Positions 1,001 through 62,122 are shown, counted from the stretch's first letter. The stretch is 64,000 bases of DNA from Deltaproteobacteria bacterium (GCA_030018495.1 JASEFS010000001.1:161285-225284), one strand, 5' to 3'. Made by a program: numbers and translations. The notes: generated from the letters alone by a model not told the origin.

Positions 1001-1022
1001 AGCTTTAAGCTTTAGGCTGAGC
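1001..1022. repeat. Heptamer tandem repeat, AGCTTWA family (about 3 units)
   Basis: agcttta agcttta ggctgag, 18 nt after the DUF202 stop. Confidence 0.7.
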
Positions 1023-1053
1023 AAGGCAAAATTATAAGTGAGGCCGAATTATT

Positions 1054-1090
1054 CCCCTCATCCCGACCTCTCCCCGGAGGGTAGAGGGAA
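1054..1090. repeat. GC-rich hairpin repeat (CCTCTCCC-N-GGGAGAGG type), copy 1
   Basis: cccctcatcccgacctctccccggagggtagagggaa is similar to 40927-40963 (caccctcaccctaacctctccctcaagggagagggaa). Confidence 0.5.
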
Positions 1091-1155
1091 AACAGCTACT
1101 GAGCAGGGATTTTGGCTCTTTCTGGGGCGACTGAAAACCGGGGTTCTGACAACCG

Positions 1156-2190
1156 ATGCCGTTGCGTCTGATGGAACTGATGCTGGCCGCCGAGCACGTG
1201 GATGAAGTAAAAGAGCTGCTCAAAGATGAGCCCGTTGTCGATGTTTGGTATGACCGGGTTTCCGAGACCCAGGTGTTGATCAAAATCCTGGCGTCCATGG
1301 AAGAAACGGAACACCTCATCGACCTGCTGGACAAGAATTTTTCCATGTTGGACGGTTTTCGGCTCATCCTCCTGCCGGTGGCCGCGTCGGTGCCCCGGGT
1401 GGAGGAGGAAGAAAAACCCCAGAAACCCGAACCGGAGGAAGAGCGCAAAAAGGCCGAGCGCCTCAGCCGGGAGGAGCTGTACGCCACCATCAAGGACACG
1501 GCCAAGCTGAACCGGGTATATCTGGTCATGGTGGTGATGTCCACCATTGTGGCGGCTATCGGGCTCTTGAGGGACAACGTGGCGGTGGTCATCGGGGCCA
1601 TGGTGATTGCACCGATGTTGGGGCCGGTAATCGGCCTGGCACTGGCCACCACGCTGGGGGACTGGGACCTGGCCCGCCATGCCCTCAAGGCGAACGCGGC
1701 AGGTCTGCTGCTGGGCTTGGTGCTGGCGTTGTTTATGGGATATTGGTTGGAGGTCAATCCTTATATCCCGGCCATCGCCTCCCGGACCGAAATCGCCTTG
1801 GGAGACGTGGCACTGGCCCTGGCTTCCGGTGTTGCCGGGGCGTTGGCCTTCACCACCGGGGTGCCGGCGGCGCTTATCGGGGTAATGGTGGCGGTGGCCC
1901 TCCTGCCGCCTCTGGCGGTTGTTGGTCTCTTAATCGGTTCGGGCCACTGGACGCTGGGCCTGGGTGCGCTCCTGTTGCTGGGCACCAATATAATTTGCGT
2001 CAACCTGGCCGGGGTCATAAGTTTTTGGGTCCAGGGCGTGCGGCCCACCACCTGGTGGGAGGAAAACATCGCCCGCCGGGCCACCAAAGCGGTCATTATT
2101 TCATGTGCGGCGCTTCTGGCCTTGTTGGTCGCGGTGATTTTATTGTCCCGCAAAATCGGGGCGCCGATGATTTTAAAGGGAATCTTTTAA
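1156..2190 (+). CDS. TIGR00341/DUF389-like integral membrane protein
   Basis: Soluble N-terminal domain, charged linker (EEEEKPQKPEPEEERKK), then multi-TM region with VIGAMVIAPMLGPVIGLALA-type motifs. Confidence 0.65.
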   Translation: MPLRLMELMLAAEHVDEVKELLKDEPVVDVWYDRVSETQVLIKILASMEETEHLIDLLDKNFSMLDGFRLILLPVAASVPRVEEEEKPQKPEPEEERKKAERLSREELYATIKDTAKLNRVYLVMVVMSTIVAAIGLLRDNVAVVIGAMVIAPMLGPVIGLALATTLGDWDLARHALKANAAGLLLGLVLALFMGYWLEVNPYIPAIASRTEIALGDVALALASGVAGALAFTTGVPAALIGVMVAVALLPPLAVVGLLIGSGHWTLGLGALLLLGTNIICVNLAGVISFWVQGVRPTTWWEENIARRATKAVIISCAALLALLVAVILLSRKIGAPMILKGIF

Positions 2191-2661
2191 GTGGCCGAAT
2201 TGAGCAACGCGGAAATTGTGGCCCGGGTGGAGGAACTGCTTAAACCGCTGGTGGAGGCCCAGGGACTGGAGCTGGTGGAAGTGCAATTCACCAGGCCGAG
2301 GCGAGGGCGGGTCAATCTGCGCGTTTTTCTTGACCGGCCAGGGGGTATTACCCTGGAGGAAATCACCCGGGTCAGCCGGGTGGCAGGGAACCTGTTGGAT
2401 GTTCACGATTTCATCGCGCCGTCCTACAACCTGGAGGTTTCCTCGCCGGGGCTGACCAGGGAGTTGAAAAAGCGCCAGGATTACCAGCGCTACTCCGGGC
2501 GGCTGGTGCGCCTCACCACCCGCAGCGCCATCGGCGGCCGGCAGGTGCACCGGGGCATTTTGCAGGGCCTGGAGGAAGGTGAGGTCGTCTGCCTGGAAGA
2601 GGACGGCGAAGTGCAGCGGATTCCGTTGGCAGAGGTGGCCAAGGCGCGGCTGGATATTTAG
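2191..2661 (+). CDS. rimP: Ribosome maturation factor RimP
   Basis: GTG start abutting the upstream stop. Motif SYNLEVSSPGLTRELK. Position directly upstream of nusA. Confidence 0.9.
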   Translation: MAELSNAEIVARVEELLKPLVEAQGLELVEVQFTRPRRGRVNLRVFLDRPGGITLEEITRVSRVAGNLLDVHDFIAPSYNLEVSSPGLTRELKKRQDYQRYSGRLVRLTTRSAIGGRQVHRGILQGLEEGEVVCLEEDGEVQRIPLAEVAKARLDI

Positions 2662-2664
2662 AGA

Positions 2665-2700
2665 CAGTGGTCAGTGGTCAGTGGCCAGTGGTCAGTTGGT
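2665..2700. repeat. Heptamer tandem repeat, CAGTGGT family (about 5 units)
   Basis: cagtggt cagtggt cagtggc cagtggt cagttggt, starting 4 nt after the rimP stop. Confidence 0.85.
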
Positions 2701-2788
2701 AAGAGTAGGACGGCAAATAAGTTATTTCACGGTGTTCAATTTGATTCAAGTGAGCATCGAAGGTTTTTAAATAAATCTGAAAATTCAA

Positions 2789-2825
2789 AGCTTAAAGCTG
2801 ACAGCTTAGAGCTTATAGCTTTATA
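2789..2825. repeat. Heptamer tandem repeat, AGCTTWA family (about 5 units)
   Basis: agcttaa agctgac agcttag agcttat agcttta, ending about 20 nt before the nusA ATG. Confidence 0.85.
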
Positions 2826-2846
2826 AAAGGAGGCCTGGCGCCATTT

Positions 2847-4130
2847 ATGAATCTGGAGCTAAGGCGAATAATTGAGCAAGTGAGCCGGGACAAGGGCATC
2901 GACAAGGAGCTGCTTATCTCGGCCATCAAGGACGCGGTGCGCTCAGCAGCCAGAAAGAAGTACGGCCCGCGTCTGGACCTGGAAGTCGAGTATAAGGAAG
3001 ACACCGGGGAAATTGAAGTATTTCAATATAAAGAAGTGGTGACCGAAGTCACGGACCCCAGCCGGGAGATCAGCCTGGAAGAAGGGCGGGCCCTGGACGC
3101 GGAATGTGAAGTCGGGGATTCGCTGGGCATCAAGATGGATGCCAGCAGCCTGGGCCGCATCGCCGCGCAATCCGCCAAGCAGGTCATCATGCAGCGCATG
3201 AAAGATGCGGAACGTGACTTGGTGTACGAAGATTTTAAGGACCGGAAGAACGAAATCATCAACGGCATCGTTCAGCGCCTGGACCCTGAAGGCATAATCG
3301 TCAACCTGGGACGCACCGAAGCGCTGCTGCCGCCTTCCGAGCAGGTGCCTCGGGAGATTTACCACAAAGGGGAGCGCATCCGGGCCTACCTGTTGGACGT
3401 CAAGCGTCAGACCAGGGGGCCGCAAATCATCCTGTCCCGCACGCATCCTCAATTTCTGGTGCAGCTTTTCGAAGCGGAGGTGCCGGAAATAGCTGAGGGC
3501 ATCGTGCAAATCCTGGGATGCGCCAGGGAGCCGGGCAGCCGCGCCAAGATCGCGGTGGCCTCCCGGGACTCGGATGTGGACCCGGTGGGCGCCTGTGTAG
3601 GCTTAAAAGGCGCCCGGGTGCAGAACATCGTGCAGGAGCTGCGCGGGGAGAAAATCGACATTATTCCCTGGAGCCCGGACGTGGCCAAGTTTGCCACCAA
3701 TGCGCTGGCGCCTGCTGAAGTGAGCCGCATAATCATGAACAAGGAAAGCCAGACCATGGAGGTCATCGTGCCCGATGACCAGCTCTCTCTGGCCATCGGC
3801 AAACGGGGCCAAAACGTGCGGCTGGCCTCCCGGCTGGTGGGCTGGAAGATCGACGTCAAAACGGAGTCCAAATACTCCAAGTCCCTGAAAGAGGGCTACC
3901 TGTCGCTGCTCAGCATTCCCGGGGTGGGCGAGATCACGGCCAATCTGCTGCACGAGGCGGGCTACACTTCCGCCAAAGAGGTGGCGGAGACCAGTCTCGA
4001 TGACCTGATCCAGGCTACCGGGCTTACAGAAAAGAAGGCCGCCGGTCTCATTGCCGCGGCCAAGGAAATGATCGGCAAAAAGGCGGCGGAGGCTGAAGCG
4101 GAAGCCGCCGGGAATCCGGCAGAAGGATAA
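2847..4130 (+). CDS. nusA: Transcription termination/antitermination factor NusA
   Basis: S1 and KH motifs ([11 protein letters not shown]; [29 protein letters not shown]; [23 protein letters not shown]). AGGAGG upstream. Confidence 0.95.
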
Positions 4131-4181
4131 TAATTGGCAACCAGCAATACGGAAACATCATACGGGGGTAAATCGAGGTTT

Positions 4182-6884
4182 ATGGCCAGAACAAGGGTAA
4201 TAAATTTAGCCAAGGAACTCAAGGTGGACGTTCGGGATCTTTTGCAGCGCCTGAAGGAAGACCTGGGTCTGCAAGTTGACAACTATCTCAGCTCCTTAGA
4301 CGAGGAAATGGCGGAAAAGGTGCGGCAAACTATGAGCCAATTGGCGCCTCAGGTTGAGGAGCTGCGGATAGGAGAAAATATCAAGCGGCGCCGGCGGGTG
4401 GCTCCCGTGGTGGTGACGCCGCCTTCCGCTCCCCGGGAGGGGGAGGAAGAAGCGCCGGCCGAGCCTGCCCCGAAGCCACCGATAAGACCTCTCAAAGCCA
4501 AAAAGCCGAAAGAGGTCAAGGCCCGGGTGGTGTCTTTGCCGGTGCAGGAAAAGGCGCCGGAAATAGAACCGGCCGTTCCTCCGGAAGCAGAAGCCCCGAT
4601 ACCCCCTGTAGAGAAGAAGCCGAAGAAGACGGCGGCAAAGGCAGCGCCTCCTCCAGAGGCCGTGTCTGAGGCCAAGCCTGCCCCCGAGGAGGCCGCGCCG
4701 GAGCGCGCTCCGGCCAAGCGCCTGCGCAAGGCAAAAAAGAAAGACGTCCCGGCTCGAGTTATCAGTCTGCCTCCTGAAGGAGCCGCGGCGCCGGCCCCTG
4801 CCGAAATCACCCCGGAAATAGAGCCCGCAGCGCCTCGAGAAGCGCGGGAGACTCGCCCTGCGGCCGAGGCCAAAGCGGCACCTGAGGTGAAAAAGCCCGA
4901 AGTCAAACCGAAAAAACGGGGCAAACGGGAAGTGGTGGAAATGCCGCCCCGGGGCAAGCCCGTGAAGAAGCGGGAAATCCGGGAGCGGGCCGACCTGTAT
5001 GCCGAAGGTGAAGTCCGGGGCGTTCCTGCCAAGAGAAGGGGTCTCAAAAAGGGAGTCAAGAAGATTTCCCGGGCTGAGCTCACGGTGCCCAAGGCCATCA
5101 AACGGCGCATCAAGGTGGGCGAATCCATTACCGTGGGCGATCTGGCCAAGCGCATGGGCATCAAGTCCAGCGAAGTTATCAAACAGTTGCTGGGCATGGG
5201 GGTGATGGCCAACATCAACTACCCCATCGACTTCGACTCAGCGGTATTGGTGGCCAGCGAGTTCGGCTTTGAAGTGGAGCGGGCCGCCATGCTGGAAGAA
5301 GACCTGCTGGCCGCAGTGGCGCAGGAAGGTGAGTTAACCCCCCGTCCGCCGGTGGTTACCATCATGGGCCACGTGGACCACGGCAAGACCTCGCTCCTGG
5401 ATGTCATCCGGCAGACCCGGGTTACCGAGGCGGAGGCGGGAGGCATCACCCAGCATATCGGCGCATATCACGTCACCCTGCCCCACGGGCGCGGCGACGT
5501 GGTCTTTCTGGACACCCCGGGTCACGAGGCCTTTACCGCCATGCGGGCCCGCGGCGCCCAGGTCACTGACCTGGTGGTGCTGGTGGTGGCCGCGGACGAC
5601 GGCGTCATGGAGCAAACCCTGGAGGCCATCAACCATGCCAAGGCGGCCGGCGTACCCCTGGTGGTGGCGGTGAATAAAATCGACAAAGCCAACGCCAACC
5701 CGGAGCGGGTCAAGCGGGAACTGGCCAACATCGGCGTGGTTCCGGAAGAGTGGGGCGGCGACGTGCTCTTTGCAGAAGTTTCAGCCAAGCAAAAAATAGG
5801 CATCGAAGAGCTGTTGGAAAAAATTCTCCTGCAGGCAGAGATTCTGGAACTCAAGGCGCCCAAGGACATCCCCGCGCAGGGCCGCATCATCGAATCCCGC
5901 CTGGACAAGGGCAGGGGACCGGTGGGCACGGTGCTCGTGCAAAAGGGCACTCTTAAACAGGGGGATTACTTTGTCTGCGGCACCGAATACGGCCGGGTCC
6001 GGGCCATGTTCGACGACCTGGGCAATCGGGTGGAAGAAGCCACTCCGGGAATCCCTGTAGAAGTTCAGGGTTTCAGCGGCGTTCCCGAAGCCAGCGATGA
6101 ATTCCAGGTTATGGAAGACGAACGCAAGGCCAAGCAGATCGCCATGATGCGCCAGCAGAAGCAGCGCGAGGCGGTCCTGGCCCGCATGACCAAGGTAAGT
6201 CTGGAAAAACTTTACCAGCAGATCAAGGAAGGCGCGGTCAAAGAACTCAAAATGGTGCTCAAGGCCGACGTGCACGGCTCCATCGAGGCCTTGACCAAGG
6301 CCCTGTCGGAACTGGGCAACGAAGAAATCAAGGTCAACGTCATCCACACGGGCATCGGCGAAGTGACGGAAAGCGACATCATGCTGGCTTCGGCCTCCGA
6401 CGCCATTGTGGTGGGCTTCAATGTCAGGACCAACCCCAAGGCCCAGTCTCTGGCCGAAAGCGAGCAGGTGGATGTACGGTTCTACGACATCATTTACAAT
6501 CTGCTGAACGACGTCCAGGCGGCCCTGGAGGGCATGTTGGAGCCGGTCATCGAGGAGCGGGTGCTGGGGCAGGCGGAGGTGCGCCAGGTATTCACCATCT
6601 CCAGGGTCGGCACCATAGCCGGCTGCATGGTGCTGGACGGCAAAGTGGAGCGCAACGCCCTGGCCCGGGTGAAACGCCAAGGCGCGGTGGTCTTTGAAGG
6701 CGGCAAAATCACCTCGCTCAAGCGGTTTAAAGAGGACGTGAAAGAAGTGGCCAGCGGCTATGAATGCGGCATCGGCATCGATAGGTTCGGCGAGTTCCAA
6801 AACGGCGACATCATTGAGGTCTATGTGCAGGAAAAGGTCAAAGCCGAGCTGCCGACCCCGGGGGTCCGGGAGGCAAGGGAGTAG
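4182..6884 (+). CDS. infB: Translation initiation factor IF-2
   Basis: G domain VVTIMGHVDHGKTSLLD, DTPGHEAF, NKID. Long P/A/K/E-rich N-terminal region. ATG 4182 (GAGG upstream, MARTRVINLAKEL) preferred over TTG 4134. Confidence 0.95.
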   Translation: MARTRVINLAKELKVDVRDLLQRLKEDLGLQVDNYLSSLDEEMAEKVRQTMSQLAPQVEELRIGENIKRRRRVAPVVVTPPSAPREGEEEAPAEPAPKPPIRPLKAKKPKEVKARVVSLPVQEKAPEIEPAVPPEAEAPIPPVEKKPKKTAAKAAPPPEAVSEAKPAPEEAAPERAPAKRLRKAKKKDVPARVISLPPEGAAAPAPAEITPEIEPAAPREARETRPAAEAKAAPEVKKPEVKPKKRGKREVVEMPPRGKPVKKREIRERADLYAEGEVRGVPAKRRGLKKGVKKISRAELTVPKAIKRRIKVGESITVGDLAKRMGIKSSEVIKQLLGMGVMANINYPIDFDSAVLVASEFGFEVERAAMLEEDLLAAVAQEGELTPRPPVVTIMGHVDHGKTSLLDVIRQTRVTEAEAGGITQHIGAYHVTLPHGRGDVVFLDTPGHEAFTAMRARGAQVTDLVVLVVAADDGVMEQTLEAINHAKAAGVPLVVAVNKIDKANANPERVKRELANIGVVPEEWGGDVLFAEVSAKQKIGIEELLEKILLQAEILELKAPKDIPAQGRIIESRLDKGRGPVGTVLVQKGTLKQGDYFVCGTEYGRVRAMFDDLGNRVEEATPGIPVEVQGFSGVPEASDEFQVMEDERKAKQIAMMRQQKQREAVLARMTKVSLEKLYQQIKEGAVKELKMVLKADVHGSIEALTKALSELGNEEIKVNVIHTGIGEVTESDIMLASASDAIVVGFNVRTNPKAQSLAESEQVDVRFYDIIYNLLNDVQAALEGMLEPVIEERVLGQAEVRQVFTISRVGTIAGCMVLDGKVERNALARVKRQGAVVFEGGKITSLKRFKEDVKEVASGYECGIGIDRFGEFQNGDIIEVYVQEKVKAELPTPGVREARE

Positions 6885-6910
6885 CTTTAAGCTGTAAGCT
6901 ATAAGCTATA
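6883..6910. repeat. Heptamer tandem repeat, AGCTTWA family (4 units), overlapping the infB stop codon
   Basis: agcttta agctgta agctata agctata. The first unit contains the last two bases of the infB TAG. Confidence 0.85.
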
Positions 6911-7041
6911 GGCAACGCTTTTAATTCCGGAAATTGAGTTTCGGCATTGATAACTCAACATGCCAACTCCGGATAATACTTTTCGACTCCTCGGGTTAAT
7001 GCTGATTGACAAGGAAAAAGTGGTTAAACCTGTTTTTTTTC

Positions 7042-7076
7042 AGCTTAAAGCTTAAAGCCTAAAGCTTATAGCTATT
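7042..7076. repeat. Heptamer tandem repeat, AGCTTWA family (5 units)
   Basis: agcttaa agcttaa agcctaa agcttat agctatt, ending 16 nt before the DUF503 ATG. Confidence 0.85.
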
Positions 7077-7092
7077 TCGCGGAGCGCAACAA

Positions 7093-7386
7093 ATGATCGT
7101 CGCGGTGGCCCGCCTTACCCTGATGCTGCACGACAATAACTCCTTGAAGGGCAAGCGCAAGGTGGTGCGGAGCCTGATAGAAAAGGTGCGGCACCGCTTT
7201 GATGCCGCCGTTGCGGAGGTGGAAGACCACGACAAGTGGCAGCGGGCCAAGATCGGGGTAGCCTTGGTGGGCAACGATTCCACCTTGCTCAAGTCACGAC
7301 TGGATCAGATTATGCAGTTCATGGAAAACCAGCACTTGGCGGAAATCATCGATTCCCAGGTTGAGCTCTGCTACCTGGAAAGCTGA
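7093..7386 (+). CDS. DUF503 (YlxP-like) protein
   Basis: 97 aa, MIVAVARLTLMLHDNNSLKGKRKVV...AEVEDHDKWQRAKIGVALVGND. Typical position between infB and rbfA. Confidence 0.8.
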   Translation: MIVAVARLTLMLHDNNSLKGKRKVVRSLIEKVRHRFDAAVAEVEDHDKWQRAKIGVALVGNDSTLLKSRLDQIMQFMENQHLAEIIDSQVELCYLES

Positions 7387-7393
7387 CGTCGTC

Positions 7394-7756
7394 ATGCGAC
7401 CGAAGCACCCTGCCGGCAAGCGTCCCACCCGCGTCGCGGAACTTCTGCGGGAATCCCTGGCTTCGATTCTCCTTTACAAGTGCGCGGACCCCCGGCTCAA
7501 GGAGCTTACGATTACCGAAGTGGACATGAGTCCGGACCTCAAGCAGGCCAAGGTGTTCTATGTGGTGCGCAGCGGGACGGATATGGAAGACACGGCCGCG
7601 GCCCTGGACAAGGCCGCGGGTTTCATCAAGCAGGAGGTGGCCCGGGAGCGCATCCTGCGGACCATGCCAGAGTTGATTTTCCTGCCCGATAAAAGCTGGG
7701 AACGGGCCCAGCGGCTGGAGGAACTGCTCAAGGCCGCGAAGGAAGAGAAAGATTAG
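7394..7756 (+). CDS. rbfA: Ribosome-binding factor A
   Basis: KRPTRVAELLRESLASIL...DPRLKELTITEVDMSPDLKQAKVFY. ATG 7394 preferred over the upstream alternative start in the ORF track. Confidence 0.9.
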   Translation: MRPKHPAGKRPTRVAELLRESLASILLYKCADPRLKELTITEVDMSPDLKQAKVFYVVRSGTDMEDTAAALDKAAGFIKQEVARERILRTMPELIFLPDKSWERAQRLEELLKAAKEEKD

Positions 7757-7766
7757 AGGAGCCGTC

Positions 7767-7976
7767 ATGCCAAACAAAATGAAGAGAAGAGAGCCGGAAA
7801 TTATCCTGCGCAAAGGCAAGCCTGCGGCAGTAATCATTGACATAGACGACTATCAAGAGATGCTGGAAAAATTAGAAGATGTGGAAGATTTGCAGATGCT
7901 CGCAGAAATGCGCAAGAAACCTTTGCAGTTCAAGAAATTAGAGGAATTTATCAAGGAATTTAAGCCAGATGTATGA
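7767..7976 (+). CDS. Type II antitoxin, Phd/YefM-like
   Basis: 69 aa, KGKPAAVIIDIDDYQEMLEKLEDVEDLQ. AGAGGAG RBS. Its stop overlaps the toxin start. Confidence 0.7.
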   Translation: MPNKMKRREPEIILRKGKPAAVIIDIDDYQEMLEKLEDVEDLQMLAEMRKKPLQFKKLEEFIKEFKPDV

Positions 7977-8223
7977 GGTCTATCTGGAACAGGCGGCCCA
8001 GAAAGACCTAAGACGGTTGCCGGTGGATGTATTTCGGCGCGTCATGCCTGTAATTGAGACGTTGGCAGAAGACCCAAGGCCGCGAGGGTGCAGGAAAATC
8101 CACGGCAGTAAGAGCGATTGGCGGATTCGAATCGGGAGTTATCGAATAATTTACGAAATAGATGACAAATCCCAAATTGTGAGAATATTTCGCGTTCGCT
8201 ACCGAAAAGAGGCATATCGATAG
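7969..8223 (+). CDS. Type II toxin, RelE/ParE family
   Basis: 84 aa, ...LAEDPRPRGCRKIHGSKSDWRIRIGSYRIIYEIDDKSQIVRIFRVRYRKEAY. 8-nt overlap with the antitoxin gene. Confidence 0.8.
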   Translation: MYEVYLEQAAQKDLRRLPVDVFRRVMPVIETLAEDPRPRGCRKIHGSKSDWRIRIGSYRIIYEIDDKSQIVRIFRVRYRKEAYR

Positions 8224-8235
8224 TTTGCCACTGCT

Positions 8236-8397
8236 CGTTACCAAGCTGGAACTTGGGAACGGGAATGAAATGCCAAGCTCAGCTTGGCTGTTGGCAAAAG
8301 CGTTCCCAAGCGGGAGCTTGGGAACGGGGTTCAGATGCAGGGCGGGCACTGCCCGCCATATATAAAAATCAGTGGGCGGCGCCCACCCATATAAAAA
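8236..8397. repeat. Array of short hairpin repeats in the relE-truB spacer
   Basis: Three CCAAGC/GCTTGG hairpins, two followed by GGGAACGGG. Then two GC hairpins (ggcgggc-act-gcccgcc; gtgggcg-gcgcccac), each followed by CATATA(T)AAAAA. Confidence 0.6.
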
Positions 8398-9297
8398 ATG
8401 CTTAACGGCCTTCTTCTTATCGACAAACCTGCAGGCCCTTCCTCCTTTGAGGTGGTGCGGCGGGTGCGACGCGTCTTCAAGGTGCGCAAGGTGGGCCACC
8501 TGGGGACGCTTGACCCTTTTGCCACCGGCCTCCTGCCCCTGGCTCTGGGGGAGGCCACCAAGCTCGCCCCGTATCTGATGGACGCGGCAAAGACATACCT
8601 GGCCAGGGTCAAATTCGGGGAAGAGACAGACACCCTGGACCCCACCGGCACGGTGGTCGCCAGATGCGGGCAGCTTCCTGAACCCGAGGATATCCGGCGG
8701 ACGGCGGCCTGCTTTGTAGGGGAGATCGAGCAGGTGCCCCCCAGGTTTTCCGCGGTGCATTATGAAGGTCAGCGCCTTTATAAGCTGGCCCGGCAGGGGG
8801 TGGCGGTGCAGCCCGAACCCCGCCGGGTAGCGGTGCATAAGCTGGAGGTCAAAGAAATTGCCCTGCCTGAGGCTGTCATAGAAGTAACCTGCGGCAAGGG
8901 CACCTATATCCGGGTCCTGGCCGCGGACCTGGGCAGAGCCTTGGGCTCGTGCGCCCACCTTGCCGCGCTCCGGCGCCTGGCGGTGGGCCGGTTCCGGGTG
9001 GAAGCAGCGCTGCCACTGGCTGAACTGGCCAACCTCGACCGGGAGGAACTCCGGGAGCGGCTGATTCCGCTGGCCGACTGTCTGCCGGAGCTTAATATGG
9101 TGCCTGTGGACAGGGAGGAAGCCTTGCGTTTGAGCCAGGGCCGGGCCGTGACCGCACCGGCCAACGGTCTTCAGAATGGCGAGCAGGTTCGGGTTCTTCT
9201 GAACGGGCATCTGGTGGCGCTGGCTTTAGTGCAACACGCCGGGGGACAAGCGGTTCTGGCTCCCAAGCGGGTATTTCTTGCCATGCCCCAAGCTTGA
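8398..9297 (+). CDS. truB: tRNA pseudouridine(55) synthase TruB
   Basis: GLLLIDKPAGPSSFEVV...KVGHLGTLDPFATGLLPL (catalytic Asp context). Confidence 0.95.
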   Translation: MLNGLLLIDKPAGPSSFEVVRRVRRVFKVRKVGHLGTLDPFATGLLPLALGEATKLAPYLMDAAKTYLARVKFGEETDTLDPTGTVVARCGQLPEPEDIRRTAACFVGEIEQVPPRFSAVHYEGQRLYKLARQGVAVQPEPRRVAVHKLEVKEIALPEAVIEVTCGKGTYIRVLAADLGRALGSCAHLAALRRLAVGRFRVEAALPLAELANLDREELRERLIPLADCLPELNMVPVDREEALRLSQGRAVTAPANGLQNGEQVRVLLNGHLVALALVQHAGGQAVLAPKRVFLAMPQA

Positions 9298-9388
9298 TTA
9301 TGAAAAACATTAGGCAATCACGTGGATGGTCTCCGGCTTGCCGGGAAACAGCCACGGCAAATACTTACCTTTGTTAGAGGAGGACACA

Positions 9389-9658
9389 GTGGCACTCGAC
9401 GCGGCACAAAAACAGGAAATTATCGACCGCTTCCGCCTGCACGAGTCGGATACCGGCTCCACGGAAGTGCAAGTGGCGATCTTGAGCGAGCGGATCAATT
9501 ATCTGACCAATCATTTCAAGACCCATGCCAAAGACCATCATTCCCGGCGGGGCTTGATCAAGCTGGTAGGGCAGAGACGACGTCTTTTAAACTATCTCAA
9601 GAAAAAGGACATCGATCGCTACCGCACCCTGATCGAGCAGCTGGGTCTGAGGAAATAG
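9389..9658 (+). CDS. rpsO: 30S ribosomal protein S15
   Basis: GTG 9389 six nt after AGAGGAGG. 89 aa [55 protein letters not shown]. Confidence 0.95.
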
Positions 9659-9675
9659 GAGGAATTAAGACTTAC

Positions 9676-11823
9676 ATGTCAACCAAATATACCATAGAAG
9701 TCGGGGGCCGGGATCTCAGCTTCGAGGTCGGCAAAATGGCCGGCCAGGCCAACGGCGCGGTGCTGGTGCGCTATGGCGAAAGCGCCATTCTGGTAACGGC
9801 CACCATGAGCGACAAGCCCCGGGAGGGCGTCGACTTTTTGCCCCTGACCTGCGACTACCTGGAGATGGCCTATGCTGCCGGCCGTATCCCGGGCGGTTTT
9901 TTTCGGCGGGAGATCGGTCGTCCCAGTGAGAAGGAGACACTCACCTCCCGGTTGATCGACCGCCCTTTGCGGCCCCTCTTTCCCAAAGGGGTCACCCATG
10001 AGATTCAAATTATTGCCACCGTGCTGTCAGGAGACCTGGAAGTCGACTCGGACATCCCGGCCCTGTGCGGCGCCGCGGCGGCCCTGGAAATTTCCGACAT
10101 CCCCTTCAACGGCCCGGTAGCCGCGGTGCGGGTGGCAAAGGTGGACGACGAGCTTATCATCAATCCCACCAACGCGCAAATCAAGGATGGACGCCTCAAC
10201 CTTATCGTGGCCGGCGCCCCCCAGGGTCTGGTGATGGTGGAAGCCGGGGCCAAGATGGCCACGGAGGAGGAAGTTCTGGAGGCTCTGTTCTTTGCCCAGG
10301 AAAGCATCCGGCCCATCTTGGACCTGATCAAAAGGATGGGTGAGGAAATCGGCCGGGCCAAGCTGCCGCTACCGGAACCGCCGGATTACGGCGATTTGCC
10401 CCAGAGGGTGGCGGCTCTGGCGGAAGAGCGCATCCTCCACGCCATGACGCGGCCGGAGAAGCAGGAGCGCCGCCAGGCCATGGATGAGGTGCGCGAGTAC
10501 GTGCTCGCCGGCCTGAGCGAGGAATTCCAGGGCCGGGAAAAAGACATCCTGAATGTTCTGGCGGACGTGCAAAAGAAACTCGTCCGCAGCAAGGTGCTGC
10601 GGGAGAAACGGCGCATCGACGACCGCGGCTTCGCGGACGTGCGGCCCATCTCCTGCGAGATCGATCTGCTTTCCCGAACCCATGGCTCCGCGCTCTTCAC
10701 CCGTGGGGAAACCCAAGCCCTGGCGGTGGCCACGCTGGGAACCCCCTCGGACGAACAGCGCATCGAAAGCCTCTTCGGCGAGACTTTCAAGTCCTTCATG
10801 CTGCACTATAATTTTCCGCCGTATTCCGTGGGTGAAACCCGCTTCTTGAGAGGTCCGGGCCGGCGGGAGATCGGCCACGGGGCGCTGGCGGAGCGGGCTA
10901 TCTCGCCGGTGTTGCCTTCGGCCGAGGACTTTCCGTACACCATCCGGGTGGTGTCGGAGATCCTGTCCAGCAACGGCTCCTCCTCCATGGCCACCGTGTG
11001 CGGCGCGTCCCTGGCGCTTATGGACGCGGGCGTACCCATAAAGGCCCCGGTGGCCGGTGTGGCCATGGGGCTCATCAAAGAAGACGACCAGGTGGCGGTG
11101 CTCTCGGACATTTTGGGAGACGAAGACGCCCTGGGCGACATGGACTTCAAGGTGGCCGGCACGGTGGAGGGCATAACCGCGCTCCAGATGGATATCAAGA
11201 TGCCGGGGCTGACCAGGGAAATTATGTCCCAAGCCCTGAGCCAGGCCCGGGAGGCGAGGCTGTTTATCCTGGACAAGATGAATCAGACCATTGCCGAACC
11301 GGCTCCAGGCCTCAAGGACCACGCCCCCAAGATCGTGATCATCCATATCAATCCCGACAAAATCCGGGACGTCATCGGCCCCGGCGGCAAGATGGTGAAG
11401 CAGATCGTGGCCGCCACCGGGGTGAAGATCGACATCGACGACGACGGCCGGGTGCATATCTCCTCTCCCACCCAGCTTGCTGCGGACGAAGCCATCCGCA
11501 TCATCCGGGAGATCACCGCGGAGCCCGAAGTGGGCGCGGTGTACAAGGGCAAGGTCAAGAAGATCATGGATTTCGGTGCGTTTGTGGAAATTTTGCCGAA
11601 CACCGACGGCCTTATCCACATCTCCGAATTGGCCCACCACCGGGTCAAGGCCGTCACCGACATCCTCAAGGAAGGCGACGAAGTCATGGTAAAGGTTCTG
11701 GACGTGGACAAGCAGGGCAAAATCCGCCTGTCCCGGAAAGCCTTGCTGGAAGCCCCGGAAGCGCCGCAATCCCCCGAACCCGGGAAAAGGCCCCATCGTG
11801 TACCAAAAAAGCATTCTTCCTAA
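9676..11823 (+). CDS. pnp: Polyribonucleotide nucleotidyltransferase (PNPase)
   Basis: ATG 9676 after AGGAGG. Two RNase PH domains, KH (IRDVIGPGGKMVKQI) and S1 (GAVYKGKVKKIMDFGAFVEI). Confidence 0.95.
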   Translation: MSTKYTIEVGGRDLSFEVGKMAGQANGAVLVRYGESAILVTATMSDKPREGVDFLPLTCDYLEMAYAAGRIPGGFFRREIGRPSEKETLTSRLIDRPLRPLFPKGVTHEIQIIATVLSGDLEVDSDIPALCGAAAALEISDIPFNGPVAAVRVAKVDDELIINPTNAQIKDGRLNLIVAGAPQGLVMVEAGAKMATEEEVLEALFFAQESIRPILDLIKRMGEEIGRAKLPLPEPPDYGDLPQRVAALAEERILHAMTRPEKQERRQAMDEVREYVLAGLSEEFQGREKDILNVLADVQKKLVRSKVLREKRRIDDRGFADVRPISCEIDLLSRTHGSALFTRGETQALAVATLGTPSDEQRIESLFGETFKSFMLHYNFPPYSVGETRFLRGPGRREIGHGALAERAISPVLPSAEDFPYTIRVVSEILSSNGSSSMATVCGASLALMDAGVPIKAPVAGVAMGLIKEDDQVAVLSDILGDEDALGDMDFKVAGTVEGITALQMDIKMPGLTREIMSQALSQAREARLFILDKMNQTIAEPAPGLKDHAPKIVIIHINPDKIRDVIGPGGKMVKQIVAATGVKIDIDDDGRVHISSPTQLAADEAIRIIREITAEPEVGAVYKGKVKKIMDFGAFVEILPNTDGLIHISELAHHRVKAVTDILKEGDEVMVKVLDVDKQGKIRLSRKALLEAPEAPQSPEPGKRPHRVPKKHSS

Positions 11824-13045: not shown

Positions 13046-13085
13046 CATCGGTCGGCTCATCACCAAATTACCGGATTTTTTTTAC

Positions 13086-13110
13086 GGCGCCTTAGGGCGC
13101 TTTTTTTTTT
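13086..13110 (+). terminator. Rho-independent terminator
   Basis: gcgcc-ttag-ggcgc followed by T10. Confidence 0.65.
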
Positions 13111-13215
13111 GTGAGTTGGCCAGCCGTTTTACCCCGCTCGCTTCCTGAACCGTCCGCCCAGGCATTGTCTCCGGTCAAACGCGTCTTATGTTATCTAGAA
13201 AAACAGGAGGTACTT

Positions 13216-13605: not shown

Positions 13606-13658
13606 CAGAATCAGAAACATCGGGTGCGAACTGTTTTCAATAACTGCAGAAAAACGAA

Positions 13659-13692
13659 AAGGCCGGGGTCTTGTCGACCCCGGCCTTTTTTA
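13659..13692. terminator. Bidirectional rho-independent terminator
   Basis: aaaaggccggggtc-ttgtc-gaccccggcctttttt. A-run on one side and T-run on the other, between convergent genes. Confidence 0.8.
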
Positions 13693-13732
13693 TCATGTCA
13701 ACCTTGCGGCGCAAGCCACCGCCCATTAATCC

Positions 13733-29361: not shown

Positions 29362-29602
29362 GTATTGCTTTTTTAAAATATCCCTATAAAATCTTAAACA
29401 TTATGACTTCTGACAATTCGAAGGTTATCCAGGCATTAATCCTATCCTTGGCTCTCTTCTTAGCCTGCGCTTAGGCGCGAGGCACTTTCTTCCCATTCCC
29501 TAATCAGCAAAAAAGTGGTACATAATATAAGTTTCGGCCGTGGCCTGTTTGCGGCCTATGCTGTGAATTTACCGGTCATTGGCAATGGCCGAAAATTTTT
29601 CA

Positions 29603-29633
29603 CCGAAAACTGAAAACCGAAAACTGAAAACCG
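29603..29633. repeat. Heptamer tandem repeat, CCGAAAA family (about 4.5 units)
   Basis: ccgaaaa ctgaaaa ccgaaaa ctgaaaa ccg, ending 20 nt before the leuA ATG. Confidence 0.85.
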
Positions 29634-31209: not shown

Positions 31210-31237
31210 TAGTGGTCAGTGGTCAGTGGTCAGTGGT
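31210..31237. repeat. Heptamer tandem repeat, CAGTGGT family (4 units)
   Basis: tagtggt cagtggt cagtggt cagtggt, starting 3 nt after the leuA stop. Confidence 0.85.
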
Positions 31238-33353: not shown

Positions 33354-34270
33354 GCCAGACGCCGCCGGGCCCGCACCACCCGGTTGATGCCCTGGTAATC
33401 CTTGACCGCTTCCACGTGGTCATACGCCGCCGACTTATCCAGCAAATCCAGGATAACCTCAGCTTGTCCCGGTCCCATCTCGAGAGCCAGCCAGCCTCCC
33501 GGTACAAGGTAGCGATGCGCCCCCTGAGCCATTGGCTTCAGGAGCGCCAGCCCGTCGATTCCCCCCACCAAAGCCTCTTTGGGCTCATAAAGCCGGACGT
33601 CGCGCGACAGAGTCTGCCACTCCGGTTCGGCCACATACGGCAGGTTGGCCACGATCAAGGCGAAGCGGGGTTCGGCCTTGAACCCGGCAAAGAGGTCGGT
33701 TTGCACAAAAGCGATACGGCCGGCCGCGTCGTGGCGCCAGGCGTTGAGCCGGGCCACCTTCAAAGCCGGACGGGAGAGGTCGGCGCCGATCCAATTAATG
33801 TGCGGCAATTCCCTTGCCAGGACCGTCACCACGGCCCCTGAGCCCACGCCGATTTCCAGGCCCCAAACGCGGTTTTTGGTTTCTGGTTTTCGGTTTTTGG
33901 CGGGAGACTCCTGGCCGGATTCTCTCATAACTTCCAGGACCGCCTCCACCAGCACTTCGGTCTCCGGCCGGGGGATGAGAACCGCTGGAGTAACCTTAAA
34001 GTCCAGGGACCAGAATTCCTTGTGCCCGGTTATGTAGGCCACCGGCTCGCCCGCAGCGCGGCGCTTTACCAGTTCCCTGAAGCGCGACAATTCCTCAGGG
34101 CTGAGAGGCTGATCATGCTTAAGATAAAGGTTGAGGCGGCTCAAACCTAAAGTATGGGCCAGCAGCACTTCGGCCGAGGCCCTTGGTTCGGACACGCCCT
34201 TGCCTTGGAAATAGCCCACCGTCCGCCGCAGAATCTCTCTTACCGTCAAGGGTTTGCCGGGATTGGACAT
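33350..34270 (-). CDS. prmC: Release-factor glutamine N5-methyltransferase PrmC/HemK
   Basis: SAM motif LEIGVGSGAV, downstream of prfA. Catalytic tetrapeptide reads NLPY rather than NPPY. Carries a repeat-derived insert. Confidence 0.85.
   Translation of the reverse strand: MSNPGKPLTVREILRRTVGYFQGKGVSEPRASAEVLLAHTLGLSRLNLYLKHDQPLSPEELSRFRELVKRRAAGEPVAYITGHKEFWSLDFKVTPAVLIPRPETEVLVEAVLEVMRESGQESPAKNRKPETKNRVWGLEIGVGSGAVVTVLARELPHINWIGADLSRPALKVARLNAWRHDAAGRIAFVQTDLFAGFKAEPRFALIVANLPYVAEPEWQTLSRDVRLYEPKEALVGGIDGLALLKPMAQGAHRYLVPGGWLALEMGPGQAEVILDLLDKSAAYDHVEAVKDYQGINRVVRARRRLA
33871..33900. repeat. Heptamer repeat, CCGAAAA family, inside the prmC coding sequence (inverted orientation)
   Basis: Minus strand ccaaaaa ccgaaaa ccagaaa ccaaaaa ccg is translated as AKNRKPETKNR just before the SAM-binding GxGxG. 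Confidence 0.75.
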
Positions 34271-34323: not shown

Positions 34324-34356
34324 AACCGAAAACCGAAAACCGAAAACCAAAAACCG
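34324..34356. repeat. Heptamer tandem repeat, CCGAAAA family (about 4.5 units)
   Basis: aaccgaa aaccgaa aaccgaa aaccaaa aaccg, between the prfA stop and the prmC start. Confidence 0.85.
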
Positions 34357-36954: not shown

Positions 36955-38004
36955 ATGAATGGAAATGCAGAGCGAACTCTTAAGTTAATTCACAGCAAAC
37001 AGGCGAGCGAGCCGCTGCCGCAGGCGAACTCAGCCCGTGCCGCGGAGGAAGCCGCGGATCTTGAGCTTCTGGATGCCTATTCCCGGGCGGTCATCAGCGT
37101 GGTAGATCAGGTGGGGCCGGCGGTGGTCAACATCACCGCGGGTCCCCTTGTCCCCCGGCCGGGCGCGGAGCACATGGGCGCGGGCTCCGGGGTTATCATC
37201 GCGCCGGACGGCTATATTCTGACCAACAGCCATGTGGTGCAGAAGGCCGAACGCCTGCGCGTCACCCTCACCGAAGGCTCGACCCTGGCGGCAACCATGG
37301 TGGGTGCCGATCCGGCTACGGACTTGGCGGTTATCCGGGCCCATGGGTCACTTTTGCCCCACGCGGTGCTGGGGGATTCCGCCGCGCTCAGGGTCGGGCA
37401 ACTGGTTATAGCCATGGGGAACCCCCTGGGCTTCCAGTCGTCCGTGTCCACCGGCGTGGTGAGCGCGCTGGGCCGCTCTCTCAGGACGGTGGAAGGGCGG
37501 CTCATCGAAAACATCATCCAGCATACCGCGCCCTTGAATCCCGGCAATTCCGGTGGGCCGCTGACGGACTCCCGGGGCCGGGTGGTAGGGGTGAACACGG
37601 CCATTATCGCCATGGCCCAGGGGATCGGCTTCGCCATCCCGGCCAACACCGCTCAATGGGTGGTGACCCAGCTCATTTGCTACGGCCGGGTGCGCCGGGG
37701 CTTTTTGGGCATCAGCGGCCGCCAGCGCCCCCTGGACCGGCGCCTGGTGCGCTTCCACAACCTGACCGGGGATTTTGCCGTAGAGGTGATAGCGGTTGAC
37801 CCCAAGGGGCCGGCAAAGAAGGCCGGCGTGCGGGCCGGCGACCTCATTGTGGCTTTGAACGGCCAGCCGGTGGCCAGTGTGGACGACCTGCACCGCTTTC
37901 TGTCAGAGGGACCCTTTGATCAAGCCCTCAGCCTGGCGGTCATTCGGGGCAAGGAACGCCTGGAGTTAAGCGCCAGGCTGGCCGAAGCCCAAACCGCCGG
38001 GTAA
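36955..38004 (+). CDS. HtrA/DegP-family (S1C) serine protease with PDZ domain
   Basis: Catalytic motifs ILTNSHVV, DLAVIR, GNSGGPL; C-terminal PDZ. ATG 36955 (GGGAG upstream) preferred. No obvious signal peptide from that start. Confidence 0.85.
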   Translation: MNGNAERTLKLIHSKQASEPLPQANSARAAEEAADLELLDAYSRAVISVVDQVGPAVVNITAGPLVPRPGAEHMGAGSGVIIAPDGYILTNSHVVQKAERLRVTLTEGSTLAATMVGADPATDLAVIRAHGSLLPHAVLGDSAALRVGQLVIAMGNPLGFQSSVSTGVVSALGRSLRTVEGRLIENIIQHTAPLNPGNSGGPLTDSRGRVVGVNTAIIAMAQGIGFAIPANTAQWVVTQLICYGRVRRGFLGISGRQRPLDRRLVRFHNLTGDFAVEVIAVDPKGPAKKAGVRAGDLIVALNGQPVASVDDLHRFLSEGPFDQALSLAVIRGKERLELSARLAEAQTAG

Positions 38005-38009
38005 GTGAT

Positions 38010-38040
38010 TAGTGGTCGGTGGCCAGTGGTCAGTGGTCAG
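38010..38040. repeat. Heptamer tandem repeat, CAGTGGT family (about 4.5 units)
   Basis: tagtggt cggtggc cagtggt cagtggt cag, starting 6 nt after the protease stop. Confidence 0.85.
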
Positions 38041-38099
38041 AACCCAATATTTTGCAGGCGAGGGGCCTGGCTGCATTGATTTAATTTAGGAGGACTTTT

Positions 38100-41996: not shown

Positions 41997-42024
41997 CAGT
42001 GGCCAGTGGTCAGTGGCCAGTGAC
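41997..42024. repeat. Heptamer tandem repeat, CAGTGGT family (4 units)
   Basis: cagtggc cagtggt cagtggc cagtgac, 15 nt upstream of the minus-strand formyltransferase start. Confidence 0.85.
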
Positions 42025-60964: not shown

Positions 60965-60996
60965 TGCCGGGGCACGGCTTATTTTAGAGATTTAGC

Positions 60997-62064
60997 ATGG
61001 CTGAAAAGAGCTATCAATTGGATTGGGTGACCGACAGTCTGGCGGTGGGGCAGGCGCCCATGTCTTATGAGGCCTTGGATCAACTGCGGGAACAGGGCAT
61101 AAACGCCATTATGAATTTGTGCGCCGAATTTTGCGATTTGCACTGGATTGAAGCCGACGCCGGGTTCGAAGTGTATTATTTCCCCATTCCCGACGAGCAA
61201 GCACCGGACTTGCAAGAGTTGGAAAAGGCCCTGGACTGGCTGGACGAATGCCTGTACTTAGGGAAAAAAGTGCTGGTCCACTGCCGCTTCGGCATAGGGC
61301 GGACCGGCACGGTGGTGAATGCCTACCTGCTGCGCAAGGGCCTGGGGCATAAACTGGCCGGCAGAAAGCTCAAGGGTTTCAAGTCCCGGCCTGCCAATTT
61401 CGACCAGTGGTGGTTCATCCGCAAGTACGGCAAAAAAGAGAAACCTTTGGTTATCCGGGAGCCTGCCCTGGAGACCAAACATCTGGTGGATCTTTTCCCG
61501 TTTTTTAAAGATTACCGAAAAATCCGCAAAGAGGTGGACCAGCGCCTGGCCGCGGCCGGAAAAGAGACCTTGTGCGGCCAGGGACATGCACAATGCTGCC
61601 GGGAACTGGTGGTCATGTCATTCATTGAGACGGTGTATGTCAACCATGTTATCAACACCACCCTGGACCGGGTGACGCGCCGGAATGTCATCCAGCGGGC
61701 CGTGGATGCAAGCCGGGCCTGGCGGGAGTTAAAGCAGCAGACAGAGGCGGATTATGACGACGAAGCCTTGGCCGCGGCCTACCGGCAGGCCCAAATTCTG
61801 TGCCCGTTGAACGAATACGGGGAATGTCTGATTTTTGAAAACAGGCCCCTGTCCTGCCGCATTTTCGACCTGCCCGCGTGGGACCGCGAAGATTTTGCAG
61901 CCCGGCTGCCCCAGGCCCTGGGCGAAATTTCAGACAGCGTGTATTCTGCTTTCACTTCCCGGCTTCCGGGCGGCGTATCCCTTAATTTTTCTTTGCCAGA
62001 AGTGGTATCAGGCAAATTTATCCAGGCTTTTTTCCATCACCTGCTGAAAAACAACGCGGCCTGA
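60997..62064 (+). CDS. Fusion of a dual-specificity (Cys-based) phosphatase domain and a YkgJ-like Cys-cluster domain
   Basis: CX5R P-loop VLVHCRFGIGRTGTVV. C-terminal CGQGHAQCC ... CPLNEYGECLIFENRPLSCRIF, typical of YkgJ/UPF0153 proteins. Confidence 0.75.
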   Translation: MAEKSYQLDWVTDSLAVGQAPMSYEALDQLREQGINAIMNLCAEFCDLHWIEADAGFEVYYFPIPDEQAPDLQELEKALDWLDECLYLGKKVLVHCRFGIGRTGTVVNAYLLRKGLGHKLAGRKLKGFKSRPANFDQWWFIRKYGKKEKPLVIREPALETKHLVDLFPFFKDYRKIRKEVDQRLAAAGKETLCGQGHAQCCRELVVMSFIETVYVNHVINTTLDRVTRRNVIQRAVDASRAWRELKQQTEADYDDEALAAAYRQAQILCPLNEYGECLIFENRPLSCRIFDLPAWDREDFAARLPQALGEISDSVYSAFTSRLPGGVSLNFSLPEVVSGKFIQAFFHHLLKNNAA

Positions 62065-62070
62065 GAATGG

Positions 62071-62122
62071 GCTTTAAGCTTTAAGCTATCAGCTATCAGC
62101 TATCAGCAAATAAGCTTTAAGC
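62071..62122. repeat. Heptamer tandem repeat, AGCTTWA/AGCTATC family (about 7 units)
   Basis: gcttta agcttta agctatc agctatc agctatc agcaaat aagcttta agc, starting 7 nt after the phosphatase stop. Confidence 0.85.

Follow-up and report, generated by a model that had tools for sequence, protein, structure and literature searches.

Tandem repeats of a seven-nucleotide unit have been known in bacteria since 1990 as the STRRs, and heptanucleotides have been recognized since 2007 as the most over-represented long simple repeat in bacteria; the class is still poorly understood. The STRR heptamers of heterocystous cyanobacteria, reportedly described by Mazel and coworkers in 1990, are said to be tandem and intergenic and to occur as several families per genome. 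Their units are CCCCAGT, TTGGTCA and CAACAGT, and their arrays can be far longer than those considered here. We have analyzed arrays of this kind in 64,000 nucleotides of a genome deposited as Deltaproteobacteria bacterium (GCA_030018495.1, JASEFS010000001.1:161285-225284; this whole stretch is referred to as the window), in which units such as AGCTTWA, CAGTGGT and CCGAAAA are repeated head to tail at gene boundaries. They fall into an established class, the heptanucleotide simple sequence repeats (SSRs) of bacteria, along with the STRRs, the long SSRs (LSSRs) and the TAACTGA and GGGAATC repeats; the lineage and the unit set are new, not the kind of element. To judge from its protein sequences, the host belongs to the order Desulfobaccales and is related to sulfate reducers: the homologues of its NusA and LeuA bear the names Desulfobaccales or Desulfobacca, and its NusA is 85% identical to that of Desulfobacca acetoxidans. 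Our literature search turned up no account of these arrays from either Desulfobacca or Desulfobaccales.

An initial reading of the window, made from the sequence alone (the sequence-only reading), named the STRRs as the only analogue. They are indeed the same kind of tandem heptamer, with several families per genome, and CAGTGGT rotated to TGGTCAG agrees at six of seven positions with STRR2 (TTGGTCA, rotated TGGTCAT). This is the best agreement, after rotation, with the STRR units given above; the phylum is another one and the units are not identical to those of the Desulfobaccales host. Moreover, the TAACTGA, GGGAATC/GGGGAYT and Geobacter elements and the LSSRs, all described below, are closer or equally close. 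REP sequences (repetitive extragenic palindromes) and BIMEs (bacterial interspersed mosaic elements) are single imperfect palindromes with a conserved consensus, found in intercistronic and 3' positions, where they form hairpins past stop codons. The window arrays share the operon positions and the post-stop hairpins, and some CAGTGGY arrays have inverted partners, but they are tandem 7-nt units rather than single palindromes with a consensus. Membership among REP elements or miniature inverted-repeat transposable elements is also contradicted by the 3-17 nt to which shared flanks are limited, the lack of an Rfam match and the different units at orthologous slots.

Among prokaryotic LSSRs with units of 5-11 nt, heptanucleotides are the commonest (Mrazek, Guo and Shah 2007, as summarized in PMC4679880 and PMC4692102), and their excess has been ascribed to slippage over the polymerase footprint (Mrazek 2007, as summarized in PMC4679880). 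The likeness lies in an excess of head-to-tail heptamers in scattered genomes, mostly in non-coding DNA, and the polymerase-slippage explanation is common to both; in those summaries the survey does not include Desulfobaccales, and no abutment to stops or Shine-Dalgarno (SD) sequences and no strand polarity is described. The GGGAATC repeats of Xanthomonas and the GGGGA(C/T)T repeats of Nostoc are 89-93% intergenic and lie close to the neighboring open reading frame (ORF); their strand is set by an upstream or downstream position, and their slots are kept between species while length and sequence vary (Rehm et al. 2015, PMC4692102). All of these traits, from the intergenic, ORF-near position to the position-dependent strand and the slots kept between species, recur in the window. 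However, the Xanthomonas and Nostoc units carry G-tracts that are read as G-quadruplex formers, whereas AGCTTWA, CAGTGGT and CCGAAAA cannot form quadruplexes and several types coexist; only the array at 63025 (CAGGGGC) has a tract of at least three G per unit. The TAACTGA repeats of marine Beggiatoaceae, some Cyanobacteria and some Bacteroidetes come in 2-6 copies, are intergenic, abut start codons and are oriented toward them, housekeeping genes included; the units contain stop codons, and S1, cold-shock proteins (Csp) or CsrA have been proposed as binders (MacGregor 2015, PMC4679880). The window unit CTGAAAA, rotated to AAACTGA, matches TAACTGA at six of seven positions. That system has one dominant unit, and its arrays replace the SD, whereas the window has many units, keeps the SD 3' of the array and has half of its arrays past stops. 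The window holds no TAACTGA arrays, and a strong SD (GAGGAGG, AAGGAGG) stands between array and start. Geobacter metallireducens, another host from the former Deltaproteobacteria, carries GGACCGG x4 in 49 copies and MTYCTGA x5 at 15 sites, proposed to be global regulatory elements (PMC2700814). The resemblance is in the four to five tandem heptamers and the many copies; the units are others, GGACCGG also occurs inside genes, and no boundary rule is reported (PMC2700814).

Arrays in the window were called with Tandem Repeats Finder (TRF) and checked by sequence reading and by our own lag-identity scan. TRF returned 12 period-7 arrays, all head-to-tail repeats of a unit of exactly 7 nt, with 3.7-7.3 copies each; they are short and imperfect (70-100% matches). 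A mini-array at 1001 (AGCTTTA AGCTTTA GGC, 2.4 units) falls under the TRF score cut-off but is counted as a real member because a related species (L254) has GCTGTAA x3.6 in the identical slot. This brings the total to 13 arrays of 2.4-7.3 units, or about one per 5 kb (Table 1). The 12 arrays of the sequence-only reading, with their units and copy numbers, are all real, but the array at 63025-63057 (CAGGGGC x4.7) had been missed. The units had likewise been read correctly, but their partition into three families is unnatural, since in relatives these slots are filled by other units; between AGTGGTC and AGCTGTC only two of seven positions differ, and CAGGGGC is a fourth unit in the window. Period 7 is the sole enriched period. 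The lag-identity scan found eight strong arrays at period 7, four at period 14 and none or one at each other period from 2 to 15, and 30 dinucleotide-preserving shuffles of the window gave no strong array at period 7. Exact two-unit heptads in the non-coding DNA of the window are virtually all part of the listed arrays, and isolated proto-arrays are almost absent. At gathering thresholds, Rfam matched only tRNA-Gly and a skipping-rope RNA in the window and nothing at the arrays, and a promoter/terminator consensus scan of positions 1-8000 gave no signal at arrays above shuffle level.

Genes were delimited with a crude caller, supplemented by calls on the identical contig L001 and on relatives and by Pfam. 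Genes leave 12.7% of the window uncovered, and eleven of the 13 arrays fall there (binomial p = 8e-9). Six of these 11 start 0-6 nt past the stop of rimP, infB, leuA, the minus-strand prfA, the HtrA-like gene or the gene ending at 62064, where random placement within the same spacers predicts 0.73; four more stop 14-23 nt short of a start codon, immediately 5' of the SD of nusA, DUF503, leuA or the minus-strand fmt. Thus, by distance thresholds that were set after the data were seen, 10 of the 11 intergenic arrays lie no more than 6 nt from a stop or 23 nt from a start, against 3.0 expected (P ~1e-5; 200,000 simulations). The placement at gene boundaries claimed from the sequence alone is therefore borne out. 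Pfam agrees with the names given there to rimP, nusA, infB, DUF503 and leuA, and the HtrA-like gene has Trypsin_2 and PDZ domains. Of the two coding arrays, the one at 33871, correctly described as inverted, lies on the minus strand within prmC and encodes a hypervariable PrmC linker (..AKNRKPETKNR..); the other, at 63025, encodes the first 12 residues, an N-terminal extension, of a DUF2064 protein. Stop codons in all three frames are not a general rule of the arrays: AGCTTAA, AGCTGAN and CTGAAAA carry stops, while CCGAAAA and most post-stop units do not.

The two position classes differ in the strand that they present to the mRNA. On the mRNA, arrays before an SD are rich in A and C (mean A+C 0.64; 15 arrays, 6 slots) and those past a stop are rich in G and U (mean A+C 0.43; 19 arrays, 11 slots), a contrast with a Mann-Whitney p of 0.005 by slot and 0.007 in the window alone. 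Indeed, unit families flip strand with position class: CAGUGGU past stops becomes CCACUGR before the fmt SD, and ACCGAAA before the leuA SD becomes GGUUUUC past the prfA stop. The post-stop array at 1001 is an inverted copy (83% complementary) of the pre-SD array at 7040-7068, and both adjoin plus-strand genes; polarity therefore follows transcription and not replication, and the replication strand is ruled out as the cause of orientation. The four CAGTGGT arrays do share one absolute orientation, reading on the plus strand as first noted, but there is no chromosome-wide orientation, as AGCT arrays beside plus-strand genes occur both ways, depending on position class. The common CAGTGGT orientation follows from the transcription-relative rule of G/U-rich past a stop and A/C-rich before an SD.

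Contig L001, the only other assembly of this genome that we found, is 100% identical to window positions 1-14130, arrays included, and thus represents the same genome; unit numbers were compared between species. Five related species (L004, L251, L254, L008 and L009), whose genes are ~75-87% identical in nucleotide sequence (measured for L004, L008 and L009), have arrays at the corresponding spacer positions. Although the spacer middles are unalignable between species, the array slots at their ends persist, and in four species two different spacers have an array at each end. The unit is better kept at pre-SD slots than at post-stop slots; at the former, units and copy number (~5) are kept across four to five species. 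Unit number varies at shared slots, orthologous arrays differing by whole units (4.5, 2.4 and 3.6 before leuA; 3.7 versus 7.9 before fmt), which fits the slippage suggested in the sequence-only reading. Units within an array are more alike than units of orthologous arrays, a sequence pattern of concerted evolution. Arrays were not found in these regions of D. acetoxidans (L006, L007), L010 and L253, and L002 and L003 have traces only.

Two further repeat types were noted at or near such slots. A period-8 array (AAAGGCGG x3) at 26867-26890 lies 20 nt past the ilvC stop, and in L008 a period-7 array, AGGCGAA x4.4, fills the orthologous slot (5623-5652); this slot is thus conserved while even the period differs. 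In relatives without a heptad array there, the leuA-leuC spacer is filled by G-rich/C-rich inverted repeats (GGGGGAGGGG ... CCCCTCCCCC; L009 11540-11760, L253 8615-8745, L010 11535-11615), which may form a hairpin family of their own that resembles the REPs. Close to the window end, at 63875-63906, is a C-rich period-14 repeat related to them.

The same polarity was sought in other genomes. A metagenome scan for CAGTGGY x3 returned at least 120 contigs holding at least 132 arrays, a sample that yields no totals or taxon frequencies. Among the matches listed, with each array oriented to read CAGTGGY, a long ORF in the array's sense stops within 10 nt on its 5' side 32 times, versus 6 times for the mirror arrangement (p = 2e-5); all three stop codons are used at the stop-adjacent arrays, and about one-quarter of the post-stop arrays have an inverted partner array with which they would form a long hairpin. 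A scan of genome contigs for AGCTNNN x4, likewise a sample without totals or taxon frequencies, gave at least 120 loci (L011-L130), and among the matches listed 120 of 120 are genuine heptad arrays, from Acidobacteriota (many), Cyanobacteria, Bacteroidota, Planctomycetota, Omnitrophota, Selenomonadaceae, Desulfobacterota, Nitrospirota and Pseudomonas. When these listed arrays are oriented via the purine content of the variable triplet, sense gene starts and antisense gene stops cluster 3' of them, with AGCUGAR before starts and AGCUYUC past stops, as in the clade of the window. The A+C contrast of the window reappears in 238 additional heptad arrays, built from other units, in the 1.5 Mb of loci fetched (pre-start 0.56, n = 25; post-stop 0.45, n = 44; p = 0.016). 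Gene calls in the scanned contigs are crude, and start adjacency is partly an artefact, since stop-containing arrays set where ORFs begin; only the stop-adjacent counts are taken as robust. Because both scans gave only genuine arrays among the matches listed, across many phyla, heptad arrays are far more widespread than the literature suggests.

Inverted pairs of the form (CAGTGGY)n - loop - (RCCACTG)n were seen at L009 5173-5282 and at metagenome loci L135, L160, L171, L203 and L246, as long hairpins directly past stops or between a stop and the next SD. Among the matches listed (L011-L130), AGCTNNN heptads are strikingly frequent in metagenome-assembled genomes of Acidobacteriota/Terriglobia, where they are often AGCTGAR or AGCTAGG, end 2-15 nt before an ATG and supply an SD-like AGGAG/GAGAG from the unit itself. 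No description of these was found in the literature searched.

In several units a 6-bp palindrome is extended by a single base (AAGCTT-N, TGGCCA-G and, with a wobble pair, TGGTCA-G), and because of this their arrays can form hairpins. The hairpins proposed for the AGCT units in the sequence-only reading are predicted at -11 to -21 kcal/mol, but they are no better than those of dinucleotide-preserving shuffles. CAGUGGU arrays have predicted folding z-scores of -2.1 to -2.6, and the array at 62071..62122 has a predicted fold of -20.8 kcal/mol (z = -2.1); for the CCGAAAA arrays before an SD and the GGUUUUC arrays past a stop, no structure is predicted. RNA folding was thus rejected as a common denominator, with AGCT at shuffle level, CCGAAAA and GGUUUUC unstructured and only CAGUGGU below shuffles. 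Some arrays also resemble each other beyond their units. Positions 29594-29638 and 34317-34361, taken with their flanks, agree at 89% over 45 nt; 31207-31241 and 38007-38041 are 91% identical, junctions included; and 2772-2820 and 7025-7073 are 76% identical with a shared 5' flank. Overall, such paralogous pairs, 4-7 kb apart, have 3-17 nt of flank in common. The array inside prmC (33865-33900) is inverted relative to that in the prfA-prmC spacer (34326-34361) and 86% complementary to it; the two are 425 nt apart on the same putative transcript, with the prmC start between them. Their duplex is predicted at -53 kcal/mol, versus -29 +/- 4.6 in shuffles. It is found in L008 too, but its loss in L009 rules out this long-range pairing as a conserved structure.

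We favor, at a probability of about 0.5, a reading of the observed periodicity, placement and polarity, and of the observed slots kept while unit and copy number turn over, in which the arrays are heptanucleotide SSRs born by slippage, proliferated in this Desulfobaccales lineage and filtered by selection at the mRNA level. Arrays would arise and stay homogeneous by replication slippage or unequal exchange between units and would occasionally be copied between nearby spacers; birth by slippage and homogenization are consistent with the differences in unit number and with concerted evolution. Because 7 is not a multiple of 3, arrays would, we propose, survive only in untranslated spacers or tolerant linkers. 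Position and orientation would be set by selection on mRNA. Pre-SD arrays, at about -15 to -50 from the start, would be kept A/C-rich, weakly structured and usually with stop codons, and may act as a ribosome standby site or S1-type landing pad and end translation arriving from upstream. Post-stop arrays would be kept in the G/U-rich orientation, which would make a poor Rho-loading substrate inside operons.

A number of points weigh against this reading. We infer selection on mRNA from placement and polarity, just as we infer slippage as the generator, transcription of the arrays, effects on translation or termination and every other functional step. The polarity rule was framed after the data were seen, and across taxa the polarity of other-unit arrays is a tendency (27 versus 17 and 17 versus 7), each class alone being a trend. 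An unstructured pad cannot cover all arrays, since the AGCT-type and CAGUGGU arrays form predicted hairpins. A filter of tolerance alone is insufficient to explain abutment at 0-6 nt from stops, and simple birth and death by slippage does not predict the rarity of isolated two-unit proto-arrays. The shared flanks, as sequence, suggest occasional copying between spacers, or a recognized motif, and not just local slippage. Finally, the arrays are lineage-specific and dispensable, because close relatives (L253, L010, L006 and largely L002) are without them in the same housekeeping operons.

The arrays might instead be a neutral by-product, microsatellite junk from a lineage-specific slippage bias (for example of polymerase or mismatch repair), with no effect in cis and with a pattern that marks only where 30 extra bases are harmless. 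We regard this account as possible but rather unlikely. It would suit the lack of arrays in the corresponding operons of D. acetoxidans, L010 and L253 and the traces in L002, the free turnover of units at post-stop slots, the many different units and the ascription of the heptamer excess to the polymerase footprint (Mrazek 2007, as summarized in PMC4679880). It does not sit well with the six of 11 intergenic arrays found 0-6 nt from a stop where 0.73 are expected, with the strong strand polarity (32 versus 6 among the CAGTGGY matches listed), with two spacers occupied at both ends in four species while their middles have diverged past alignment, or with the pre-SD units and ~5 copies kept across four to five species and the near absence of two-unit arrays. 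Stop abutment, the rarity of two-unit arrays, the recurrent size of four to five units and the shared flanks argue against pure neutral junk, and because of the same features a dedicated binder with a 7-nt footprint, such as Csp or S1, stays in contention.

Such a binder would make the arrays a platform on which each 7-nt unit is the footprint of one OB-fold protein (cold-shock-domain or S1-type) on single-stranded RNA and four to five units load a cooperative filament; the filament would melt structure, prevent termination or tune re-initiation between cistrons, as a global post-transcriptional layer. The period of exactly 7 and the recurrence of four to five units in the window and in Geobacter (PMC2700814) would be expected of it. 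CspB binds heptamer repeats with one protein per heptamer, but Csp binding is only weakly sequence-specific (both as summarized in PMC4679880), which helps this model in the one respect and hurts it in the other. The U/G-rich post-stop units resemble reported Csp preferences, and paralogous arrays have common short flanks. In Nostoc, deletion of heptamer repeats alters recF and recO reporter expression, and an unidentified heptamer-binding partner is inferred in the same study (bioRxiv 10.1101/2022.06.06.494920). However, units are very diverse even at one slot, unlike what a sequence-specific binder would require, and no candidate protein is linked to the arrays within the window; we consider a filament platform improbable.

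That the arrays act as DNA, as sites for transcription factors or nucleoid proteins or as cruciform or slipped DNA affecting replication, recombination or promoter geometry, is very unlikely. The 6-bp palindrome cores plus one base (AAGCTT-N, TGGCCA-G) and the self-complementary AGCT, which can extrude hairpins, are what one might look for in such elements, and heptad repeats are reportedly protein-binding DNA in the Vibrio cholerae ctx promoter and in Streptomyces. But units spaced head to tail at 7 bp do not keep the helical phase that multimeric DNA binders need, the majority of arrays sit within operons immediately past stops rather than upstream of promoters, polarity tracks the sense of the adjacent gene, and the CCGAAAA arrays have no palindrome. 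We find it harder still to credit the arrays as contingency (phase-variation) loci, in which frequent gain or loss of units would switch or tune a neighboring gene as the 7-bp repeats upstream of Haemophilus influenzae hmw1A do. Copy number does differ between species at the same slot, and 7-bp SSRs in 5' regions are known devices (as outlined in PMC8262952); against this, the neighbors (nusA, infB, leuA, prfA, fmt) belong to the core housekeeping set, the arrays are short with units that match imperfectly (70-100%), the other assembly, L001, is 100% identical, arrays included, and the host is a free-living anaerobe and not a host-adapted pathogen. Least credible of all is that a small extragenic element, mobile or palindromic, has been dispersed in copies. 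The flanks of 3-17 nt shared by pairs 4-7 kb apart and the REP-like long hairpins formed by about one-quarter of the post-stop CAGTGGY metagenome arrays among the matches listed might suggest this, but it is contradicted by the lack of terminal inverted repeats, target duplications or a conserved full-length consensus, by units that differ between orthologous slots and by an Rfam blank at the arrays.

With these arrays the class is now seen in Desulfobaccales, in core operons with unambiguous gene boundaries (rimP-nusA-infB, leuA-leuC, prfA-prmC and fmt). Should the rules of position and polarity reflect function, the arrays would be a general and overlooked element of bacterial operon architecture; should they not, the arrays would be a clean natural system for the study of slippage, concerted evolution and the constraint on untranslated mRNA. 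A speculative and, in our judgment, improbable extension is that heptad arrays are a cross-phylum, sequence-tolerant but strand-specific punctuation of mRNA, with 7-nt footprints that load OB-fold proteins (Csp/S1) behind terminating and before initiating ribosomes. If so, they would set coupling, read-through and the access of Rho and RNase between cistrons, period 7 would be a protein footprint and not a polymerase artefact, and one rule would explain the STRRs, the TAACTGA and GGGAATC repeats, the AGCTNNN arrays of Acidobacteriota and those of the window.

Table 1. Period-7 arrays of the window and the content of the same slots in related species. Units are given as on the plus strand, with the mRNA sense in brackets for minus-strand arrays; L numbers denote contigs of relatives.
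Unit and copies	Position	Strand	Placement	Same slot in relatives
AGCTTTA x2.4 (mini-array)	1001..1017	+	17 nt past stop of DUF202 gene (597-983)	GCTGTAA x3.6 (L254)
CAGTGGT x4.6	2665..2696	+	starts 3 nt past rimP stop (TAG 2659-2661)	AGCTATC x4.6 (L004), GCTTTAG x3.9 (L254)
AAAGCTT type x5	2787..2823	+	5 nt before nusA SD (AAGGAGG), 23 nt before ATG 2847	AAAGCTN, ~5 units (L004, L251, L254); degenerate trace (L002)
AGCTWTA x4	6883..6910	+	first unit includes infB stop (TAG 6882-6884)	AGCTGTC (L004, L251), AGTAAGC (L254); none in L002, L006
AGCTTAA x4.6	7042..7073	+	ends 19 nt before DUF503 start (7093)	AAGCTKA type: AAGCTGA, AAAGCTG, AGCTTAA among L004, L251, L254
ACCGAAA/ACTGAAA x4.5	29602..29633	+	7 nt before leuA SD (GAGGAGG), 20 nt before ATG 29654	matching unit x2.4 (L008), x3.6 (L009); none in L010, L253
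(T/C)AGTGGT x4	31210..31237	+	starts 2 nt past leuA stop (TAG 31205-31207)	degenerate trace (L008); GC-rich hairpins instead (L009, L010, L253)
GGTTTTT x4.3 (CCAAAAA/CCGAAAA)	33871..33900	-	inside prmC (33350-34270)	equivalents at L008 12573, L009 14288
AACCGAA x4.7 (GGUUUUC)	34324..34356	-	1-3 nt past prfA stop (34360-34362); 53 nt before prmC start	TGACAAC x4.4 (L009); degenerate array (L008)
GGTCAGT (= CAGTGGT) x5.9	38000..38040	+	5' end degenerate, includes stop of HtrA-like gene (TAA 38002-38004)	
CAGTGGC/T x3.7 (CCACUGR)	41997..42022	-	14 nt upstream of fmt start (41982), adjoining SD; also 35 nt past stop of 62-aa gene	CAGTGGC x7.9 plus inverted TCACKGC x4.6 (L009); TTACCGC x3.1 (L008)
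GCTTTAA/GCTATCA x7.3	62071..62122	+	starts 6 nt past stop (TGA 62062-62064) of DSP-phosphatase-domain gene; next gene convergent	
CAGGGGC x4.7 (C-rich, GCCCCUG/ACCCCAG)	63025..63057	-	first 12 codons of DUF2064 gene (62336-63061)	

Other features of the locus were noted in passing. Between rbfA and truB the window has a PhdYeFM antitoxin/ParE toxin pair (7767-8223); L004 has a different pair there (nucleotidyltransferase/HepT-like), and L002 and L006 have none. From these gene contents the site looks like a hotspot for toxin-antitoxin insertion within the nusA-infB-pnp cluster. Directly upstream of the spacer with the CCGAAAA array, between pssA and leuA, lies a gene for a PLD/NgoFVII-type nuclease with a DpnI_C domain (28507-29361), which is present in L008 and absent from L010. 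The Rfam match to the skipping-rope small RNA is at 22292-22384, upstream of the ilvB operon, and scores 37.6 bits (gathering score 36.7). A 74-aa ORF on the minus strand (13733-13957) has no Pfam match and is the most conserved stretch relative to distant relatives; its nucleotides are 87% identical to those of L002 and 83% identical to those of D. acetoxidans. In the same genome, ~3.2-3.7 kb upstream of the window start (L001 3502-3936), a MamS/MamX-domain protein is encoded along with metal-resistance genes.

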